Virus record (IMG/VR): IMGVR_UViG_3300014691_000055
Direction: 5' to 3' (one strand)
DNA length: 13,664 nt
Origin: a virus
Taxonomy: Duplodnaviria > Heunggongvirae > Uroviricota > Caudoviricetes
In this document: in pieces, positions 2,391-12,025 of the stretch
Layout: each line of letters begins with the position of its first letter
How positions within the stretch are numbered: position 1 is the first letter of the stretch
The notes under the pieces: generated by a model
What the model was told of the DNA's origin: nothing
The model's input: only the letters and a program-made list of their open reading frames with translations
The model's database searches: none
Program-made: the position numbers and the translations under genes

Positions 2391-2921
2391 TCATTTGCCA
2401 TCCTGCTGCGGCGGTTCTGGTAGCGGCATCCAGTGAGTTGCCTGCTCAATGCCATTACCCGGCTTAATCGTTGCTTGTCCTCGCCGAAAGGTACTTCCGG
2501 TATTGCGTGCGGAGCATATTAGCGGCTCAACCAGATCACTATCGAAATTCACCGAAATAAGTACGTTCTGATTCTTTTTCGGCATTCGCTCACTACAGCT
2601 TATCCAACCATCCGGAATTACCGCCACTGGCTTGGCGGTATAAAGCGGTGTTATATCTGCCCGAAAATTACATGCTTTATGCAGCCGCACCCACCGTTCG
2701 ACTTCTGCTTTGTCAGAATACATACCAGTGAACGTGTTATATTCACGGTCAATTTTCGTGAATGTTACCTTCCACGCCACCGGCTCTGCTTCCAGCGATG
2801 CCAGCGCAATCCGTGCCAGTTCTTCCGCTTCTTCTGCTGGCAGTACAACGTTGCTACCAGGTCCGTATGTTTCGCGCCACTGCTTGATTGTCCGCAGTCG
2901 CTCTTTGGTAATAGTGGTCAT
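2391..2921 (-). CDS. Phage protein with C-terminal DUF551-like domain (176 aa)
   Basis: ATG start overlapping upstream stop (ATGA at 2918..2921); C-terminal motif WISCSERMPKK...HWMPLPEPP typical of DUF551 phage proteins (from memory). Confidence 0.7.
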   Translation of the reverse strand: MTTITKERLRTIKQWRETYGPGSNVVLPAEEAEELARIALASLEAEPVAWKVTFTKIDREYNTFTGMYSDKAEVERWVRLHKACNFRADITPLYTAKPVAVIPDGWISCSERMPKKNQNVLISVNFDSDLVEPLICSARNTGSTFRRGQATIKPGNGIEQATHWMPLPEPPQQDGK

Positions 2922-3283
2922 GCCGTAACCCCTTCTTGATATTTTTCAAACCAGAACACAACCGGGTCAGATTTCATTTCAACCAATCCCATACGAACCA
3001 GCGCTTTGCCTTTCCCGGACGCAAGAAATTCACGACGACCATCACTGATAATTCGCCGATAATCTTCCAGGCTACTGCAATGCTTGTGCAGATTGCATGG
3101 GTGGCATGCCGGAACCATGTTGGATATATCGTCACGTTCCTGGTGAAGCATATTCCCAGCAAAACGAATGACCGGTTTTACATGGTCTGCATGCCACTTT
3201 TCGCCAAGTTCGCAGCCGCAATAAGCACAGCGACCGCCGAACTTCATGCGCAGCTCTGCACGTTGTTTTTTCGTCAGTGCCAT
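2918..3283 (-). CDS. HNH endonuclease (approx 121 aa from ATG at 3283; track ORF begins at upstream TTG 3373)
   Basis: CAYCGC...HADHV...ACHPCNLHKH zinc-finger/HNH motifs; ATG at rc 3281..3283 with AAGGAA SD; stop overlaps next gene start. Confidence 0.72.
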   Translation of the reverse strand: MALTKKQRAELRMKFGGRCAYCGCELGEKWHADHVKPVIRFAGNMLHQERDDISNMVPACHPCNLHKHCSSLEDYRRIISDGRREFLASGKGKALVRMGLVEMKSDPVVFWFEKYQEGVTA

Positions 3284-3284
3284 T

Positions 3285-3503
3285 TCAGTTTTCCTTATAT
3301 GGATTAATTTTATTGTGCAGTGTATTGAACGACGCCCATACCACGTCGTTATACAATTCAATAACTGGCTCAATTATTTTCCCGATTGCCCAGACAAAAA
3401 TTAGCGGGGATATCGGTATCATCAACACGATAAACAGAATGAGAAACAGGAATTCTGTTGTTCTACTCTTTCGTGGATATTTTTTTCTGAATAATGTGAC
3501 CAT
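3285..3503 (-). CDS. Hypothetical small membrane protein (72 aa, one predicted TM helix FLFLILFIVLMIPISPLIFVWAIG)
   Basis: ATG at rc 3501..3503; stop 1 nt before the HNH start, so operon-packed; SD weak and ~26 nt upstream behind a GC hairpin. Confidence 0.45.
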   Translation of the reverse strand: MVTLFRKKYPRKSRTTEFLFLILFIVLMIPISPLIFVWAIGKIIEPVIELYNDVVWASFNTLHNKINPYKEN

Positions 3504-7011: not shown

Positions 7012-7650
7012 ATGAGCAAGCAAACAATATCTGAACGCATAACCCAACGTATGCATGCGCTAAACCTGAAAGGCAAAGACCTTGTCAATGCCACTGGCGC
7101 ATCAAAAGGCTCCGTAAGTCAATGGATGAACGGTGGAGGAGCGCCGTCCTCGCGTTACATAAGTTCACTGGCAAAGATATTGAAAGTAAACGAAAATTGG
7201 CTTCTTAATGGAGGAGAGTTAAATACAGGTGATTCGCTTGATCTATCTTTACCGCCGATAAAAACGGTTCCGCTACTATCACTTCAGCAGGCAGCAAGCT
7301 GGAGTGATTATATGAAAAATTCCTCAATAACCTCTTGTGTGCAGCTTGTCGGAGAAATCCCGGCCAATACCTTTGCAGTTGTTCTAGAGAGTGACAGTAT
7401 GTCAACATCTGGTGGGGGAGTTTCCATCCCAAATGGTTCAACAGTTTTTGTTGATCCCGATCGAACCGTACAACCAGGAAATATTGTCCTTGCCTTGCCC
7501 AAAGGGACCACAACACCTGTCATTCGTAAACTGGAGATTGAAGGGCCGGATATTCTTTTAGTCCCCACGAATCCTCGCTACCCTTCAATTATGCTGGATG
7601 ATCTATCTTGCATATTGGGCGTATGCTTTAAAATTCAACAAGATATTTAA
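7012..7650 (+). CDS. CI-like phage repressor (N-terminal HTH_XRE, C-terminal S24 LexA-like autopeptidase), 212 aa
   Basis: ATG 7012; HTH region GKDLVNATGASKGSVSQWMNG; C-terminal DSMSTSGGG...VIRKL Ser/Lys dyad pattern of S24 peptidases. Confidence 0.82.
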   Translation: MSKQTISERITQRMHALNLKGKDLVNATGASKGSVSQWMNGGGAPSSRYISSLAKILKVNENWLLNGGELNTGDSLDLSLPPIKTVPLLSLQQAASWSDYMKNSSITSCVQLVGEIPANTFAVVLESDSMSTSGGGVSIPNGSTVFVDPDRTVQPGNIVLALPKGTTTPVIRKLEIEGPDILLVPTNPRYPSIMLDDLSCILGVCFKIQQDI

Positions 7651-7763: not shown

Positions 7764-7941
7764 TCATTCATTCCCTCACCCCACCCCACAGAATGCAGGG
7801 CAATACTTCGAGTTACCAGGCAGTGGTCAGGGGTTAAGTAGCCAGCCCGAGGCGTAAGAACATGACGGCAGGGTTCAACTTTAATAACTATGCAGCAGGT
7901 TTTTGTTCCGCTACCCGGCGTTAAGGGGAAATGAGGTCAAC

Positions 7942-8097
7942 ATGGATACTATCGATCTTGGCAACAACGAATCTCTGGTGTACGGCGTGTTTCCCAACCA
8001 GGACGGCACATTCACCGCGATGACGTATACCAAAAGCAAAACGTTTAAAACCGAAAATGGCGCCCGTCGCTGGCTGGAAAGAAACTCAGGTGAGTGA
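7942..8097 (+). CDS. YdfA-like small protein (DUF1391-type, 51 aa)
   Basis: ATG 7942 with GAGGT SD; translation MDTIDLGNNESLVYGVFPNQDGTFTAMTYTKSKTFKTENGARRWLERNSGE resembles Qin ydfA from memory; track ORF starts at TTG 7903. Confidence 0.6.
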   Translation: MDTIDLGNNESLVYGVFPNQDGTFTAMTYTKSKTFKTENGARRWLERNSGE

Positions 8098-8098
8098 T

Positions 8099-8227
8099 AT
8101 GGATTTCGACACAATCATGGAAAAGGCTTACGAAGAATACTTCGAAGGCCTTGCCGAAGGCGAAGAAGCTCTCAGCTTCAGTGAGTTTAAACAGGCGCTT
8201 TCCAGTTCGACAAAATCTATCGACTAA
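8099..8227 (+). CDS. YdfB-like small protein (42 aa; MDFDTIMEKAYEEYFEGLAEGEEALSFSEFKQALSSSTKSID); not in ORF track
   Basis: Hand-translated; ATG 1 nt after upstream stop (tgaTATG), stop TAA 8225..8227. Confidence 0.5.
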   Translation: MDFDTIMEKAYEEYFEGLAEGEEALSFSEFKQALSSSTKSID

Positions 8228-8238
8228 CGGGGTTAAAG

Positions 8239-8397
8239 ATGGAATTTAAAGATTTACCTCCAGACACTCAGAAAATCGCCGCAGAAACACTGAAATCTCT
8301 CATTTTGAACGGGGAGACAGAAAAGGTAGAGCCAGCTAAAAAACTGGCTCAAGAAATCAGAGAAGCCTTTATTGCTCTTTATCAGTCTTCTCCATAG
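8239..8397 (+). CDS. Hypothetical small protein (52 aa; MEFKDLPPDTQKIAAETLKSLILNGETEK...); possible ydfC-like; not in ORF track
   Basis: Hand-translated; weak SD (GGGG); follows ydfB-like gene by 11 nt. Confidence 0.38.
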   Translation: MEFKDLPPDTQKIAAETLKSLILNGETEKVEPAKKLAQEIREAFIALYQSSP

Positions 8398-8554
8398 CTG
8401 CTTGTTTTTCTTCTTTCAATATATTGCGAATTGTAATAACTGAATTAGCCGCATCTGAAGGGGATGACATTTTGCCAGCCCGAATTAACTCAACTGTTAA
8501 GTTCAAAGCTGCAACAGATGGATAGGTAAATGGGTTAATTAACTTTTCTGACAT
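8369..8554 (-). CDS. Hypothetical small hydrophilic protein (61 aa from ATG 8554) transcribed against the surrounding rightward operon
   Basis: ATG rc 8552..8554 with GGAGG SD at 5-nt spacing; 3' end overlaps the + strand 52-aa ORF by 29 nt; family not recognised. Confidence 0.42.
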   Translation of the reverse strand: MSEKLINPFTYPSVAALNLTVELIRAGKMSSPSDAANSVITIRNILKEEKQAAMEKTDKEQ

Positions 8555-8768
8555 TTTATCCTCCATTGAGGTTCTGGGTTAAAAATGGAGACCAACACGC
8601 TGCCACATGTGGTCGTGCGCCGGACACGGATAAGAATCCGGCACTGACAGTTTACTGAAAGGATATATCCCTGAAAAGTCAGGGCATAACGCGAAAGCGC
8701 ACGGCGAAGTTCGTCTCACTGTACGGTGTCGTTAAATTTAATTCGACCGTGCGCTTCCGGTTGTGGCA

Positions 8769-8959
8769 NNNNNNNNNNNNNNNNNNNNNNNNNNNNNNNN
8801 NNNNNNNNNNNNNNNNNNNNNNNNNNNNNNNNNNNNNNNNNNNNNNNNNNNNNNNNNNNNNNNNNNNNNNNNNNNNNNNNNNNNNNNNNNNNNNNNNNNN
8901 NNNNNNNNNNNNNNNNNNNNNNNNNNNNNNNNNNNNNNNNNNNNNNNNNNNNNNNNNNN
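8769..8959. other. Run of 191 N (assembly gap or masked sequence)
   Basis: Read directly; all track ORFs crossing it (X-containing translations) are artefacts. Confidence 0.99.
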
Positions 8960-9084
8960 CCAGTTGACTTCCGTATTGGTTCTTATGGGTGGGTTCTCTG
9001 TATCCGGCGTTAATTGTTAACTGGTTAACGTCACCTGGAGGCACCAGGCACCGCATCACAAAATTCATTGTTGAGGACGCGATA

Positions 9085-9273
9085 ATGGAAACGTTATTAC
9101 CAAACGTTAATACGTCTGAAGGTTGTTTTGAAATTGGTGTCAGTATCAGTAACCCTGCATTTACTGAAGATGCCATTAATAAGAGAAAACACGAACGGGA
9201 GTTATTAAATCAAATATGCATTGTTTCAATGCTGGCCCGTTTACGTCTGATGCAAAAAGGATACTGGCAATGA
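9085..9273 (+). CDS. Hypothetical small protein (62 aa; METLLPNVNTSEGCFEIGV...)
   Basis: ATG 9085 with GAGGA SD 8 nt upstream; stop overlaps next start (ATGA 9270..9273). Confidence 0.45.
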   Translation: METLLPNVNTSEGCFEIGVSISNPAFTEDAINKRKHERELLNQICIVSMLARLRLMQKGYWQ

Positions 9274-9473
9274 ATACCACATTTGCACTTGTTCTGACGG
9301 TTTTTCTTGTTTCCGGTGAACCGGTTGACATGGTTACTGGCGTATACGACTCAATGAAAGAATGCATGGCTGCCGCAGCGGAACAGAAAATTCCCGGTAA
9401 CTGCTATCCGGTCGATAAAGTTATTCACATGAATAATAACGAAGTCCCGGCAGGATTAAAAACAGCACCGTAA
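9270..9473 (+). CDS. Small exported protein (67 aa) with N-terminal signal-peptide-like segment MNTTFALVLTVFLVSG and two Cys
   Basis: ATG 9270 with AAGGA SD; hydrophobic N-terminus then hydrophilic body; translationally coupled to upstream ORF. Confidence 0.5.
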   Translation: MNTTFALVLTVFLVSGEPVDMVTGVYDSMKECMAAAAEQKIPGNCYPVDKVIHMNNNEVPAGLKTAP

Positions 9474-9553
9474 TTAATATCCGGTTTCATTTTTATATGC
9501 CAGCAATGGCAGGGATTTGTTCACCCTTAAATCTGTAATGAGGTTAAAACAAA

Positions 9554-12025
9554 ATGAGTAAAGTCTTTATTTGCGCCGCCATTCCGGACGAACAGGCAAT
9601 AAAGGAAGAAGGTGCAGTCGCTGTAGCCACTGCCATTGAAGCCGGCGACGAACGCCGCGCCCGTGCCAAATTTACCTGGCAATTCCTGGAGCAATATCCG
9701 GCTGCTCAGGACTGCGCTTATAAATTTCTTGTCTGCGAGGATAAACCCGGCATGCCCCGCCCTGCCATCGACTCCTGGGATACCGAATATATGCAGGAAA
9801 ACCGCTGGGATGAGGAATCCGCTTCCTTTGTTCCGGTCGAACCAGAATCCGATCCGATGAACGTCAATTTTGACAAGCTGTCCCTTGAAGTGCAGAACGC
9901 GGTCCTGGTTAAGTTCGGTACATGTGAAAACATCACCGTTGATATGGCGATTGACGCGCAGGAATTACTGCAGGAAAACGTGGCTACCTTTGACGGGCAT
10001 ATCGTTGAAGCACTGATGAAAACGCCTGAAATTAACGCTATGTATCCGGAACGCAAACTGTTCGCTATCGGATGGGTTAAACACAAATGTAATCCGGGTG
10101 CCAAATGGCCCGAAATTCAGGCTGAATTACGTAACTGGAAAAAACGGCAGGACGCAGAGCGCAAAGAGACTGGAAAATGCACGTCTGTTGTTGATCTCGC
10201 CCGCGCCAGAGTCAATCAACAGAACACTGAAAACTCAGCAGGAAAAATCAACCCAGTCACTGCCGCCATTCGTCGCCAATACAAGCAGACATGGAAAACG
10301 CTGGATGAAGAACTGGCCTACGCTCTCTGGCCTGGCGATATTGATGCCGGAAACATTGACGGCAGCATCCATCGCTGGGCAAAAAATGAAGTTATCGACA
10401 AAGATCGCGAAGACTGGAAGCGCATCTCCGCATCAATGCGCAAACAGCCTGATGCGATTCGCTACAACCGCCAAACTATTTTTGGCCTTGTCCGTGAACG
10501 TCCGATCGACATTCACAAAGATCCTGTAGCGCTGAACAAATACATCACTGAATACCTGGCGACAAAGGGCGTGTTTGAGGATGAAGAAACAGACCAGAGC
10601 ACTGCTGATATTCTCCAGCCGTCAGCAGCACAAACTGATGCAGTGGAAACTGAAGTATCTGATACCCAAAAAAATGAAAGCGCGCTGGAAACTGAACCAT
10701 CTGTAGAGCGTGAGGGACCGTTCTATTTTCTCTTCACCGATAAAGATGGCGAAAAATATGGCCGCGCAAACAAACTTTCTGGTCTGGATAAGGCGCTGGC
10801 TGCAGGGGCTACTGAAATCACGAAAGAAGAATATTTTGCCCGCAAAAACGGTACATACTCAGGTTCACAACAAAATACTGGTACATCTGACACGATCGCA
10901 CAACCAGAGCCGGTAAAAGTTACCGCTGACGAAGTAAACAAAATTATGCAGGCAGCCAATATCAGCCAGCCTGACGCCGATGAACTGCTTGCAGTATCAC
11001 GTGGTGAATTTGTTGCAGGGATTAGCGATCCGAATGATCCGAAATGGGTGAAGGGGATTGAAACCCGCGATTCTGTGAACCAGAACCAGCAAGAAATGGA
11101 ACAGAACGACCAGAAAGCGGAACAAAACAGCCCAAATACGCAACAAAACGAGCCAGAAACGAAACAATCCGAACCAGTAGCACAACAGGAACAGGAAAAA
11201 GTCTGCACCGCCTGCGGTCAGAGCGGTGGCGGCAACTGCCCTGATTGTGGCGCGGTGATGGGCGACGCAACATACCAGGAAACATTCGATGAAGAGAATC
11301 AGGTTGAAGTTCAGGAAAATGATCCGGAGGAAATGGAAGGCGCTGAACATCCACACAAGGAGAACCCTGGCGGCAATCAGCATCACGCCAGCGATAATAA
11401 AACTGGCGAGGCGACAGATCCCTTAATTAAGGTGAACAGTCATCATAAGCTCACATCCACCAGCAGAGCGGGGATTCATCTGATGATCGACCTTGAAACC
11501 ATGGGAAAAAATCCTGATGCCCCGATTATCTCAATAGGTGCAATATTTTTCGAGCCACAAACCGGAGATATGGGACCGGAATTTAGTAAGACTATCGATC
11601 TGGAAACTGCTGGCGGAGTCATTGATCGGGACACCATTAAATGGTGGCTTAAGCAATCACGCGAAGCGCAATCTGCCATTATGACCGATGAAATCCCGTT
11701 AGATGATGCACTGTTACAATTGCGGGAATTTATCGACGAAAACTCCGGTGAATTTTTTGTTCAGGTCTGGGGAAATGGAGCCAACTTCGACAACACGATT
11801 TTGCGCCGTTCATACGAACGGCAGGGGATCCCCTGCCCGTGGCGTTACTACAACGATCGCGATGTACGCACAATCGTTGAGCTGGGGAAAGCCATAGACT
11901 TCGATGCCAGAACGGCTATTCCATTCGAAGGTGAGCGCCATAATGCACTTGATGACGCCCGTTACCAGGCAAAATACGTTTCAGTTATCTGGCAAAAACT
12001 GATCCCGAGTCAGGCTGATTCTTAA
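9554..12025 (+). CDS. RecE-like (exodeoxyribonuclease VIII-like) large protein, 823 aa, whose C-terminal ~185 aa form a DnaQ-like DEDDh 3'-5' exonuclease domain
   Basis: Central region (SRGEFVAGISDPNDPKWVKGIETRD ... CTACGQSGGGNCPDCGAVMGDATYQETFDEENQVEVQENDPEEMEGAEHPH) matches my memory of Rac RecE; C-terminus has Exo I MIDLETMG, Exo II WGNGANFDNTIL, Exo III HNALDDARY. Confidence 0.8.
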   Translation: MSKVFICAAIPDEQAIKEEGAVAVATAIEAGDERRARAKFTWQFLEQYPAAQDCAYKFLVCEDKPGMPRPAIDSWDTEYMQENRWDEESASFVPVEPESDPMNVNFDKLSLEVQNAVLVKFGTCENITVDMAIDAQELLQENVATFDGHIVEALMKTPEINAMYPERKLFAIGWVKHKCNPGAKWPEIQAELRNWKKRQDAERKETGKCTSVVDLARARVNQQNTENSAGKINPVTAAIRRQYKQTWKTLDEELAYALWPGDIDAGNIDGSIHRWAKNEVIDKDREDWKRISASMRKQPDAIRYNRQTIFGLVRERPIDIHKDPVALNKYITEYLATKGVFEDEETDQSTADILQPSAAQTDAVETEVSDTQKNESALETEPSVEREGPFYFLFTDKDGEKYGRANKLSGLDKALAAGATEITKEEYFARKNGTYSGSQQNTGTSDTIAQPEPVKVTADEVNKIMQAANISQPDADELLAVSRGEFVAGISDPNDPKWVKGIETRDSVNQNQQEMEQNDQKAEQNSPNTQQNEPETKQSEPVAQQEQEKVCTACGQSGGGNCPDCGAVMGDATYQETFDEENQVEVQENDPEEMEGAEHPHKENPGGNQHHASDNKTGEATDPLIKVNSHHKLTSTSRAGIHLMIDLETMGKNPDAPIISIGAIFFEPQTGDMGPEFSKTIDLETAGGVIDRDTIKWWLKQSREAQSAIMTDEIPLDDALLQLREFIDENSGEFFVQVWGNGANFDNTILRRSYERQGIPCPWRYYNDRDVRTIVELGKAIDFDARTAIPFEGERHNALDDARYQAKYVSVIWQKLIPSQADS

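Follow-up and report, generated by a model that had tools for sequence, protein, structure and literature searches.

A probable dicBF operon with an uncharacterised minus-strand small gene in a lambda-like E. coli prophage

The window analysed here, a 13,664-nucleotide stretch of viral DNA (IMGVR_UViG_3300014691_000055), contains at positions 8369-9473 an island of small genes that the initial annotation had called unrecognisable. This island is, with little room for doubt, a dicBF operon, a well-studied unit, belonging to a lambda-like E. coli prophage; it comprises dicB, ydfD and, beneath a run of N, the dicF site, together with one uncharacterised minus-strand small gene. We are similarly confident that the region as a whole makes up the distal half of an early-left operon of the dicBF type in a lambdoid (Qin/CP-933-like) prophage of E. 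coli. The core functions, those of DicB and YdfD, are already known, and the new leads are confined to the antisense cassette and an unannotated DicF allele (Table 1).

Table 1. Features of the dicBF-type region, in window coordinates.
Feature	Position	Strand	Support
LexA-like CI repressor	7012-7650		
ydfA (DUF1391), first gene of the operon, outside the island proper	7942..8097	+	Pfam DUF1391 E 1.7e-28; DUF1391 family protein in EC11
ydfB, 42 aa	8099..8227	+	phrog_2061 E 1.5e-25; RefSeq 'protein YdfB' for the EC11 orthologue
52-aa protein with 'MEFKDLP' N-terminal domain (phrog_9419), in the ydfC position, convergent partner	8239..8397	+	phrog_9419 E 1.3e-21
Terminator-like hairpin followed by T-rich tail TACCTTTTCT, 19 nt downstream of the antisense stop	8329..8350	-	consensus scan, 9 pairs, 5 G-C; predicted
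61-aa antisense gene, uncharacterised 'ELIRAGK' helical-hairpin family	8369..8554	-	phrog_17494 E 5e-8
Conserved 5' leader of the antisense gene	8555..8645	-	
Leader hairpin, CUCCAU paired with Shine-Dalgarno AUGGAG	8585-8590 with 8561-8566	-	
Leader 5' hairpin, GCCGGA/TCCGGC	8617-8644	-	
Long helix of about 22 bp with hypervariable apex, DicF precursor leader (8685-8708 with 8742-8765)	8685..8765	+	
Run of 191 N; expected DicF sRNA gene with intrinsic terminator (about 8846-8931) and 5' arm of the spacer helix	8769..8959	.	
Visible 3' part of the invariant dicF-dicB spacer	8960..9084	+	consensus fold, 12 alleles
Spacer hairpin, two GTTAAC copies in loop and 3' arm	9006-9032	+	
Spacer hairpin	9034-9048	+	
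3' arm of the 20-bp spacer helix	9049-9068	+	
dicB Shine-Dalgarno GAGGA	9073-9077	+	
dicB, 62-aa cell-division inhibitor	9085-9273	+	Pfam PF05358 DicB E 2.4e-38, full length
ydfD (DUF1482), 67-aa lysis protein	9270-9473	+	Pfam DUF1482 E 3.1e-23; phrog_1092 E 1.5e-37

Gene content and synteny

The region was matched in 4609 of 5426 complete E. coli genomes; the top E. coli matches are annotated DUF1391, ydfB, dicB, DUF1482 and exonuclease in the same order as in the window, and in phage Tritos DicF is annotated between ydfC and dicB. The dicB product aligned over its whole length (residues 1-62 of 62) with Pfam PF05358 at 130.1 bits (cut-off 27), scored 132.5 bits against NCBIfam NF049927 CellDivInhibDicB (cut-off 100) and is 87% identical to K-12-type DicB; its gene lies downstream of the dicF site and overlaps ydfD, a context shared by EC11, Tritos, O157, 55989 and K-12-type loci. 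Queried with the window's DicB peptides, a collection of one genome per species yielded relatives of at most 87% identity. YdfD matched Pfam PF07358 (DUF1482) over residues 5-61 at 81.9 bits (cut-off 25), an NCBIfam search with it gave no match, and a DUF1482 family protein is annotated downstream of dicB in all relatives. The two genes share an ATGA overlap, through which, to judge from the sequence, ydfD is translationally coupled to dicB. A search of all island proteins against PADLOC-DB returned no defence-system match apart from a 10.7-bit hit to DicB, which was dismissed as meaningless. The neighbour that had been called recE-like carries a DEDD-type Rv2179c-like exonuclease domain.

In K-12, DicB brings about a MinC-dependent block of the Z-ring and the exclusion of ManYZ-dependent phages (PMC6832061), and YdfD (63 aa) causes lysis on expression, binds IspG and is countered by DicB, which rescues the cells (PMC8835842); the dicBF products are also treated in PMC10448788 and PMC5069750. 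These functions are transferred by analogy to the present proteins and would apply to a DicB 87% identical to its counterpart and to a YdfD that is clearly related but not identical, the two YdfD proteins differing in the middle segment and at the C-terminus.

The statement that nothing in the island was recognisable, and that it held an uncharacterised accessory function, was thus wrong for the core, where dicB exceeds the thresholds of both Pfam and NCBIfam and ydfD that of Pfam. The proposal of an accessory slot for toxin and exclusion genes was right as to position, the island being the early-left accessory part with toxin and exclusion functions (DicB and YdfD). All features listed in the initial annotation are present in the sequence, with small coordinate offsets; the coupled pair of 62-aa and 67-aa ORFs and the gap of 191 bases stand as described, and every ORF is conserved in frame across homologous prophages. 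The label that does not hold is that of a small exported protein with a signal-peptide-like N-terminus: the hydrophobic N-terminus of YdfD, FALVLTVFLVSG, is just 12 residues long and lacks a basic n-region, and is therefore not a typical signal peptide, and because the published target, IspG, is cytoplasmic, export is unsupported.

The Qin cryptic prophage of E. coli K-12 (ydfA-ydfB-ydfC-dicF-dicB-ydfD-ydfE) shares with the window the order ydfA, ydfB, a variable slot, the dicF position, dicB and ydfD. Its operon likewise lies downstream of a cI/cro-type immunity pair, its dicB and ydfD likewise overlap, and its 340-nt dicF leader and 175-nt dicF-dicB spacer are nearly base-for-base those of the window. 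The differences lie in the slot, where Qin ydfC is replaced by the 52-aa gene and the antisense 61-aa gene; in the repressor, which is the non-cleavable DicA in Qin (PMC10448788) and a LexA-like S24 protein in the window; in the distal end, the window operon running on into an intact 823-aa exonuclease, xis and int; and in DicF, whose window allele has probably diverged in both targeting regions.

The DicF site and its RNA structures

The window itself gave no match to the Rfam DicF model (RF00039, gathering score 48 bits), the site being N, and a scan of the island at permissive Rfam thresholds yielded chance-level hits only, including PhrS, Spy490380c and the TrxA thermometer. RF00039 was matched at 72-77 bits in seven related loci, ending 174 nt before the dicB ATG, and in all relatives a G+C hairpin with a U-run precedes dicB by about 174 nt; in the window this position falls inside the N run. 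The closest proxy is the viral contig L020, both flanks of which are 100% identical to the window and which holds 226 nt in place of the N run. This fill contains a DicF-like hairpin and U-run, a variant that scores 34.1 bits; it and the EC11 allele (28.6 bits) both lie below the gathering score. Two further loci, L021 and L027, carry a canonical DicF beside a right flank 97.7% identical to that of the window, so that the allele in the window is uncertain. From these neighbours we infer that the gap holds a DicF-type sRNA gene, probably as a diverged allele. It could alternatively hide other content, such as a dicF deletion or an inserted element, leaving an island without an sRNA; at 191 nt the N run falls 35 nt short of the L020 stretch and is also shorter than in every relative examined, and the E. 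albertii locus L010 illustrates that the DicF hairpin can be shortened. We regard this alternative as improbable, however: a DicF-type hairpin and terminator occupy the site in every dicB locus examined (12 spacer alleles, 9 sRNA-segment alleles), the flanks are those of L020, and a single E. coli genome contains the dicF region at a median of 2 and as many as 9 places, repetition of the kind that usually makes short-read assemblies break and leaves a gap whose length is an estimate.

In the L020 allele, other sequence stands in place both of the xylR- and pykA-pairing 5' seed of DicF (UUUCUGGUGAC) and of the anti-ftsZ sequence in the 3' region, a change that applies to the window only if it carries the same allele. 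The predicted duplex of the L020 allele with the ftsZ leader (-27.2 kcal/mol) was no better than that of shuffled sequences, against -38.5 kcal/mol for canonical DicF, a merely suggestive result of a crude calculation that permits unrealistic long loops. Some 80 or more complete E. coli genomes carry DicF-like alleles that fall below the Rfam threshold and so go unannotated, with the result that the number of dicF copies in pathogenic strains has been underestimated.

The structured DNA that had been reported at 8600..8700 is the conserved DicF precursor leader; its G+C hairpins (8617-8644 and 8685-8708/8742-8765) are present and conserved, and the palindrome between the hairpins of the antisense leader is not. 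The arms of the long leader helix are conserved, with changes that are one-sided and wobble-compatible only, and its apex differs in eight alleles. In L004, the position 190 nt before the DicF 3' end falls in the 3' arm of this helix. The published 190-nt DicF species is RNase III-dependent (PMC10448788), and the helix is probably the RNase III site that makes its 5' end. In the dicF-dicB spacer, the 20-bp helix keeps 20 of its 20 pairs over 12 alleles, with changes only between G-C and G-U. Tandem GTTAAC palindromes had been placed at 9013..9026; the two copies exist, at 9016-9021 and 9024-9029, and although the motif occurs in the window at chance frequency (3 found, 2.6 expected), the adjacency of the pair is conserved in 11 of 12 related loci. 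Covariation tests on all three RNA structures (antisense leader, spacer and DicF leader helix) found no compensatory double change at any base pair, and the backing for RNA structure therefore consists of arm-versus-loop conservation and wobble-only changes.

The spacer also resembles STnc100 (RF02076), a candidate sRNA carried by prophages in Salmonella and E. coli, with which it aligns over the whole model, closing helix, CACCUGGAGGCACCAGGCACC hairpin and GUUAAC hairpin included; scores in the EC11 and L020 spacers were 33-34 bits, under the gathering score of 47. Published copies of STnc100 lie elsewhere, for example downstream of stx2 (PMC12370729).

The antisense gene, its partner and its leader

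The minus-strand ORF of 61 aa, noted earlier for its strong Shine-Dalgarno sequence, is a genuine gene and belongs to a family that is rare and uncharacterised. The sequence GGAGGA, a consensus Shine-Dalgarno at ideal spacing, stands 5 nt before ATG 8554 (the longest form of the ORF, 65 aa, begins at ATG 8566), and RefSeq annotates the same 61-aa gene in the closest E. coli relative. No frame but the antisense one is open, and 17 substitutions relative to L012 leave it intact. About 16 protein clusters match the family; its homologues are 59-61 aa long and 44-67% identical, with 17 invariant columns and an invariant ELIRAGK motif, and an AlphaFold2 model of the protein (pLDDT 82.7) consists of two helices. 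Homologues surfaced only with HMMER against very large protein sets; tblastn against 50,697 phage records gave no match at E-values up to 1. Comparison of the model with PDB folds returned generic helical hairpins only (best E-value 3.3), Pfam, NCBIfam and PADLOC searches of all antisense cargo proteins gave no match, and a search of the literature for antisense genes within dicBF operons found nothing relevant. A Pfam FANCAA hit of 15.9 bits (cut-off 27) and hits to giant cadherin-repeat proteins (P0011, P0012) were treated as noise.

The family is always antisense in lambdoid early-left operons, as at the same position in L013-L018, and convergent on the conserved 52-aa partner, the 3' ends of the two genes overlapping by 26-29 nt. 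Compared with L012, the partner gene shows 1, 1 and 8 substitutions at the three codon positions and an in-frame 12-nt indel; the L012 allele also lacks 12 nt that span one arm of the predicted antisense terminator. Partners of the same length, 52-60% identical, stand beside a 60-aa gene in L013 and L017. The 61-aa gene forms a cassette of its own, which has a leader and a predicted terminator and which, together with the 52-aa partner, replaces ydfC. The dicB-containing early-left regions of lambdoid prophages in E. coli O157:H7 and other STEC (CP-933/Sp type) likewise have a small antisense gene in the interval from the ydfA-side genes to dicF; the same leader drives it, and a 'MEFKDLP' domain again opens the protein of its plus-strand neighbour. 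In these prophages, however, the antisense protein has 69 aa, belongs to phrog_4274 and showed no relationship to the 61-aa family by hhalign, the neighbour has 212 aa as against 52, and DicF is canonical (75 bits).

The stems of the antisense leader are invariant and its loops variable over six loci, some of them without dicF, and its minimum free energy is -34.9 kcal/mol (z = -2.8). Its motif AACCYCMATGGAGGRTAAAATG is common to 121 loci, in which at least six unrelated small ORFs follow the leader. The palindrome CCACATGTGG at 8603-8612, between the two leader hairpins, occurs once in the window and in 5 of 200 shuffles; it reads TCACGTGTGG in O157 and CTACGTGTGG in L012, and was rejected as a binding site because it is not conserved in close alleles. 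A promoter scan of the window found none at threshold upstream of the antisense gene; the sole hit nearby (8582-8553) overlaps the start codon and cannot serve the gene. Hand-picked candidates under the scan threshold are TTTTCA-17-TAAACT in the window and an extended -10 in L017.

Most likely the antisense gene encodes a lysogen-expressed accessory protein of the moron type, whose translation would be gated by the hairpin that sequesters its Shine-Dalgarno sequence. The antisense unit could instead act mainly as RNA, minus-strand transcription dampening leaky read-through into the toxic dicF-dicB-ydfD genes by transcriptional interference or through RNase III-cut duplexes, so that the interchangeable ORFs would matter little. 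Such a role would fit a leader that is conserved while the ORF behind it is swapped among at least six unrelated sequences, the persistence of the segment from the 5' hairpin onwards in K-12-type loci without an antisense ORF, the overlapping 3' ends of the convergent genes and the known action of RNase III on the dicBF transcript (PMC10448788). We nevertheless consider it unlikely, given an ORF whose length, frame and 17 invariant residues persist in homologues as distant as 44% identity, a consensus Shine-Dalgarno and a confidently folding protein; moreover, the terminator-like hairpin directly 3' of the ORF means that antisense coverage of the operon would be short, and the published 190-nt DicF 5' end is accounted for by an intramolecular helix.

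Nor do we favour a convergent toxin/antidote or phage-defence module, the positional equivalent of sieB-type exclusion genes, of which the lysogen would produce one partner, the second appearing only on activation of the early-left operon. The pair adjoins the immunity region, its opposed orientation gives opposite regulation, and the two genes are found together at 52-65% identity in prophages of differing backbone, some of which lack dicB or dicF. Against this, the pair has no PADLOC, Pfam, NCBIfam or fold match, neither protein is hydrophobic or nuclease-like, and other alleles combine the N-terminal domain of the 52-aa protein with antisense ORFs of unrelated sequence, which argues against a specific protein-protein pair. 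The type I toxin-antitoxin system (hok/sok-like) suggested in the initial annotation was rejected, the 61-aa and 52-aa proteins being hydrophilic and helical and no Rfam antitoxin RNA having been found. The sieB gene of Rac and the moron-type exclusion genes of lambdoid phages are likewise small genes near the immunity region, and their likeness to the 61-aa gene is positional only. Rac sieB presumably lies against the kilR-recET early operon, an orientation that would permit expression in the lysogen. SieB is a membrane protein of about 160-190 aa; the 61-aa protein, soluble and helical as modelled, has no sequence or fold similarity to it.

A broader reading can be proposed tentatively. The antisense gene may mark an undescribed polymorphic cassette site in dicBF operons, where a conserved leader drives interchangeable small proteins, some of them lysogen-expressed with host-modulating or anti-phage roles, and, separately, the gap may hold a member of an unannotated DicF allele family in which seed and loop are swapped and which is retargeted away from ftsZ, xylR and pykA.

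Proposed working of the operon and its meaning

Lifting of the LexA-like CI repressor would yield one transcript running through ydfA, ydfB, the 52-aa gene, the dicF leader, dicF, dicB and ydfD and then into the exonuclease, xis and int genes. RNase III may cut this transcript at the two long helices, that of the DicF leader and the 20-bp helix closing the dicF-dicB spacer, and RNase E would trim the product to a DicF-type sRNA, probably of a diverged allele, ending at its own terminator hairpin. Read-through RNA would be translated into DicB, and YdfD would be made by coupling at the overlap. As described for its relatives, DicB would bind MinC, bring it to the septum via ZipA and block Z-ring formation, and would also block phage DNA entry through ManYZ; YdfD would lyse dividing cells, reportedly via inhibition of IspG. 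[quoted passage not shown]

For the core of the island the result is a correct annotation, that of a dicBF operon, with products that block cell division, keep out ManYZ-dependent phages and cause lysis, in a window where the assembly gap removes the one gene, dicF, that is recognisable by RNA search. Some of the unannotated DicF copies probably regulate different targets. The cassette site, if true, would be a cheap place to seek new small exclusion or host-control proteins, with at least six unrelated ORFs behind one leader, antisense to a toxic operon, in many E. coli prophages.

A dicBF-type early-left operon

The region belongs to a lambdoid prophage, in which it forms an early-left operon of the dicBF type known from Qin (PMC10448788, PMC5069750). 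All features listed for the island in the initial annotation were present in the window sequence, although the two GTTAAC palindromes lie a few bases from where they had been placed, at 9016-9021 and 9024-9029. The statement that none of the genes was recognizable did not hold, as the island is a known system: the 62-aa protein gave a full-length match to Pfam DicB (E 2.4e-38), scored 132.5 bits against NCBIfam CellDivInhibDicB (cut-off 100) and was 87% identical to the K-12-type protein; the 67-aa protein matched DUF1482, the YdfD family (E 3.1e-23), and the gene order was that of dicBF. The toxin or exclusion genes guessed for this position were right in kind, but the description of the 67-aa protein as exported is unsupported, because the target reported for YdfD is a cytoplasmic one and its own hydrophobic N-terminal stretch is short, with no basic n-region.

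Of 5426 complete E. coli genomes, 4609 gave a megablast match to window 7900-9600. In the top matches (96.6% identity) the annotation reads DUF1391 protein, YdfB, two hypothetical proteins, DicB, DUF1482 protein and exonuclease, in that order, and in phage Tritos a "DicF antisense sRNA" is annotated between ydfC and dicB. An 823-aa exonuclease gene follows ydfD, then excisionase and integrase genes; ydfA and ydfB are preceded by a repressor gene and a divergent P22-Cro-like gene. Whereas DicA of K-12 is reported to have no cleavage site, the repressor of the window is LexA-like, and because it carries HTH and Peptidase_S24 domains it is probably SOS-inducible.

Within the 823-aa "recE-like" protein, Pfam recognized only a C-terminal Rv2179c-like DEDD 3'-5' exonuclease domain, and no Exonuc_VIII domain; a 682-aa relative in locus L013 has both, and the orthologue in EC11, the closest complete E. 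coli genome, is frameshifted. The leftmost part of the window encodes a full-length sugar/proton symporter of the LacY type (Pfam LacY_symp, E 1e-193), adjoining phage DUF551 and HNH-endonuclease genes; either a truncated (cryptic) prophage meets the chromosome here or the symporter gene is cargo.

Locations of features in the window and, where named, in related loci
Feature	Location	Strand	Remarks
Left-end region	1-1248; 2391-3373	+; -	sugar symporter and phage genes
S24 repressor	7012-7650	+
ydfA (DUF1391)	7942-8097		upstream of island
ydfB	8099-8227		upstream of island
Antisense ORF	8369-8554	-	61 aa; 65 aa from in-frame upstream ATG 8566
Minus-strand leader	8555-8645; L003 1507-1600; L028 ~1309-1400; L029; L031-L137	-
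Leader 5' hairpin	8617-8644
Palindrome CCACATGTGG	8603-8612
DicF leader helix	8685-8708 with 8742-8765		~22 bp
N run	8769-8959		191 bases
DicF-like alleles	L020 315-365; L001 3985-4035; L019; L026; L008; L010		L008 and L010, E. albertii
STnc100-like spacer	8960-9084; L020 363-586; L001 4047-4201
Spacer hairpin 1	9006-9032		12-allele fold; first GTTAAC in loop, second in 3' arm
Spacer hairpin 2	9034-9048		12-allele fold
Spacer closing helix, 3' arm	9049-9068		directly before dicB Shine-Dalgarno
dicB	9085-9273	+	62 aa
ydfD	9270-9473	+	67 aa; overlaps dicB by ATGA
823-aa protein	9554-12025	+

DicF, the N run and predicted RNA structures

Rfam DicF (RF00039) was matched at 72-77 bits in seven related loci, the match ending 174 nt upstream of the dicB ATG; in the window this position falls within the N run. 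Over 202 nt on the left and 641 nt on the right of the gap, the window and the IMG/VR contig L020 agree at every position (100% identity). The equivalent stretch of L020 is 226 nt, the N run being 35 nt shorter, and contains a hairpin and U-run aligned to DicF at 34.1 bits. EC11 carries the same allele (28.6 bits), both scores falling below the Rfam gathering score of 48 bits. The L020 allele departs from canonical DicF in its single-stranded 5' part as well as in the hairpin loop; base pairing in canonical DicF is to xylR and pykA by the 5' segment and to ftsZ by the 3' region (PMC5069750). Some 79 complete E. coli genomes contain the L020 allele at 95% identity or more, always unannotated, and ~148 further records match at 80-90%. 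Which allele the window carries is uncertain: besides the 35-nt shortfall of the N run, there are contigs with canonical DicF that match the right flank at 97.7% identity. Multiple copies of the dicF region per genome (median 2, up to 9 places) plausibly explain the assembly break.

The DicF-like alleles score 28-34 bits or, in L008 and L010, go undetected at the gathering threshold; in all of them the base of the terminator stem (GGCGG/CCGCC) and the U-run are retained, with 5' seeds, hairpin loops or both replaced, seed and hairpin being shuffled independently. The contig L007 (JAGZPX010000007.1; 22.9 kb), assigned to the bin 'MAG: Veillonella parvula', also has an E. coli-type dicF-dicB locus (DicB 85% identical, DicF 72.6 bits) and is most likely a binning contaminant.

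Operon variants hardly differ between ~8609 and dicB. The predicted DicF leader helix has conserved arms and a hypervariable apex (8 alleles), the few changes in the arms all being wobble-compatible. The position 190 nt upstream of the DicF 3' end falls in the 3' arm of this helix, which fits the RNase III-dependent 5' end published for the 190-nt DicF species (PMC10448788). Twelve alleles of the dicF-dicB spacer fold as one domain closed by a perfect 20-bp helix, whose 5' arm lies within the gap. These predicted structures draw solely on the conservation pattern and energy; no compensatory double changes were seen in any helix across the compared alleles. The palindrome at 8603-8612 was not conserved among the alleles and is regarded as incidental. 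The spacer could be aligned along its entire length with Rfam STnc100, at 33-34 bits and so below the cut-off of 47; the alignment points to a common origin of this leader and the STnc100 copies at other places in lambdoid phages, such as downstream of stx2 (PMC12370729).

For the core of the operon we adopt the published model, in which derepression of a PL-like promoter would yield a polycistronic RNA and RNase III and RNase E would release DicF; the leader and spacer helices may be the sites of the two RNase III events. DicB brings MinC to the septum via ZipA, blocking division, and stops ManYZ-dependent phage DNA entry (PMC6832061). YdfD, which would be made by translational coupling to dicB, lyses dividing cells and binds IspG, and DicB counteracts the lysis (PMC8835842).

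An antisense cassette site

The module comprising the antisense gene and its convergent 52-aa partner (8228-8560) is rare, being complete in only 7 of the 5426 genomes. GGAGGA lies 5 nt upstream of the antisense start codon, and a terminator-like hairpin is predicted 3' of the ORF. Six other contigs carry the gene at the same site, beside the repressor and antisense to the early-left operon, with an overlap of 26-29 nt with the 3' end of a conserved 52-aa gene; some such prophages have RdgC in place of dicB. A first protein search found close E. coli relatives only; a full HMMER scan and profile search recovered homologues of 59-61 aa in ~16 clusters (44-67% identity), with 17 invariant columns that include LT-ELIRAGK, and PHROG profiles of unknown function were matched at E 5e-8. 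In a comparison with L012, an allele 9% diverged, this was the sole reading frame to remain open, with 8, 2 and 7 differences by codon position. The 52-aa gene bears clear signs of purifying selection; its substitutions number 1, 1 and 8 by codon position, with an in-frame indel. AlphaFold2 modelled the 61-aa protein as a helical hairpin (pLDDT 82.7), with no meaningful neighbour in the PDB. In one 98-aa homologue (P0008, from a 3256-nt Logan contig), the ELI(R/S)AG(K/E)ISSPS helical unit is duplicated in tandem.

The conserved leader combines an invariant 5' hairpin (GCCGGA/TCCGGC), ahead of the motif AACCYCMATGGAGGRTAAAATG, with an invariant stem between CUCCAU and the Shine-Dalgarno AUGGAG, the loops of both being variable. 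Pfam and PADLOC gave no match for any ORF behind the leader. Three readings of the antisense cassette were weighed. We favour a lysogen-expressed accessory protein whose translation would be gated by a hairpin. Alternatively, the cassette may act as an RNA-level brake on the toxic operon, or may form a two-gene defence or toxin module.

What is new here is only this uncharacterized cassette site and the unannotated DicF allele, both of them only leads. Across 121 prophage loci, at least six unrelated small ORFs stand behind the one leader, all antisense within dicBF-type operons: 69-aa (~60 loci), 64-aa (~29) and 61-aa (~16) types, and rarer ones of 80, 100 and 104 aa. The protein encoded next to them on the plus strand always begins with the same 'MEFKDLP' domain of ~50 aa, but its C-terminus varies. 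The leader site resembles a hot-spot at which small cassettes recombine.
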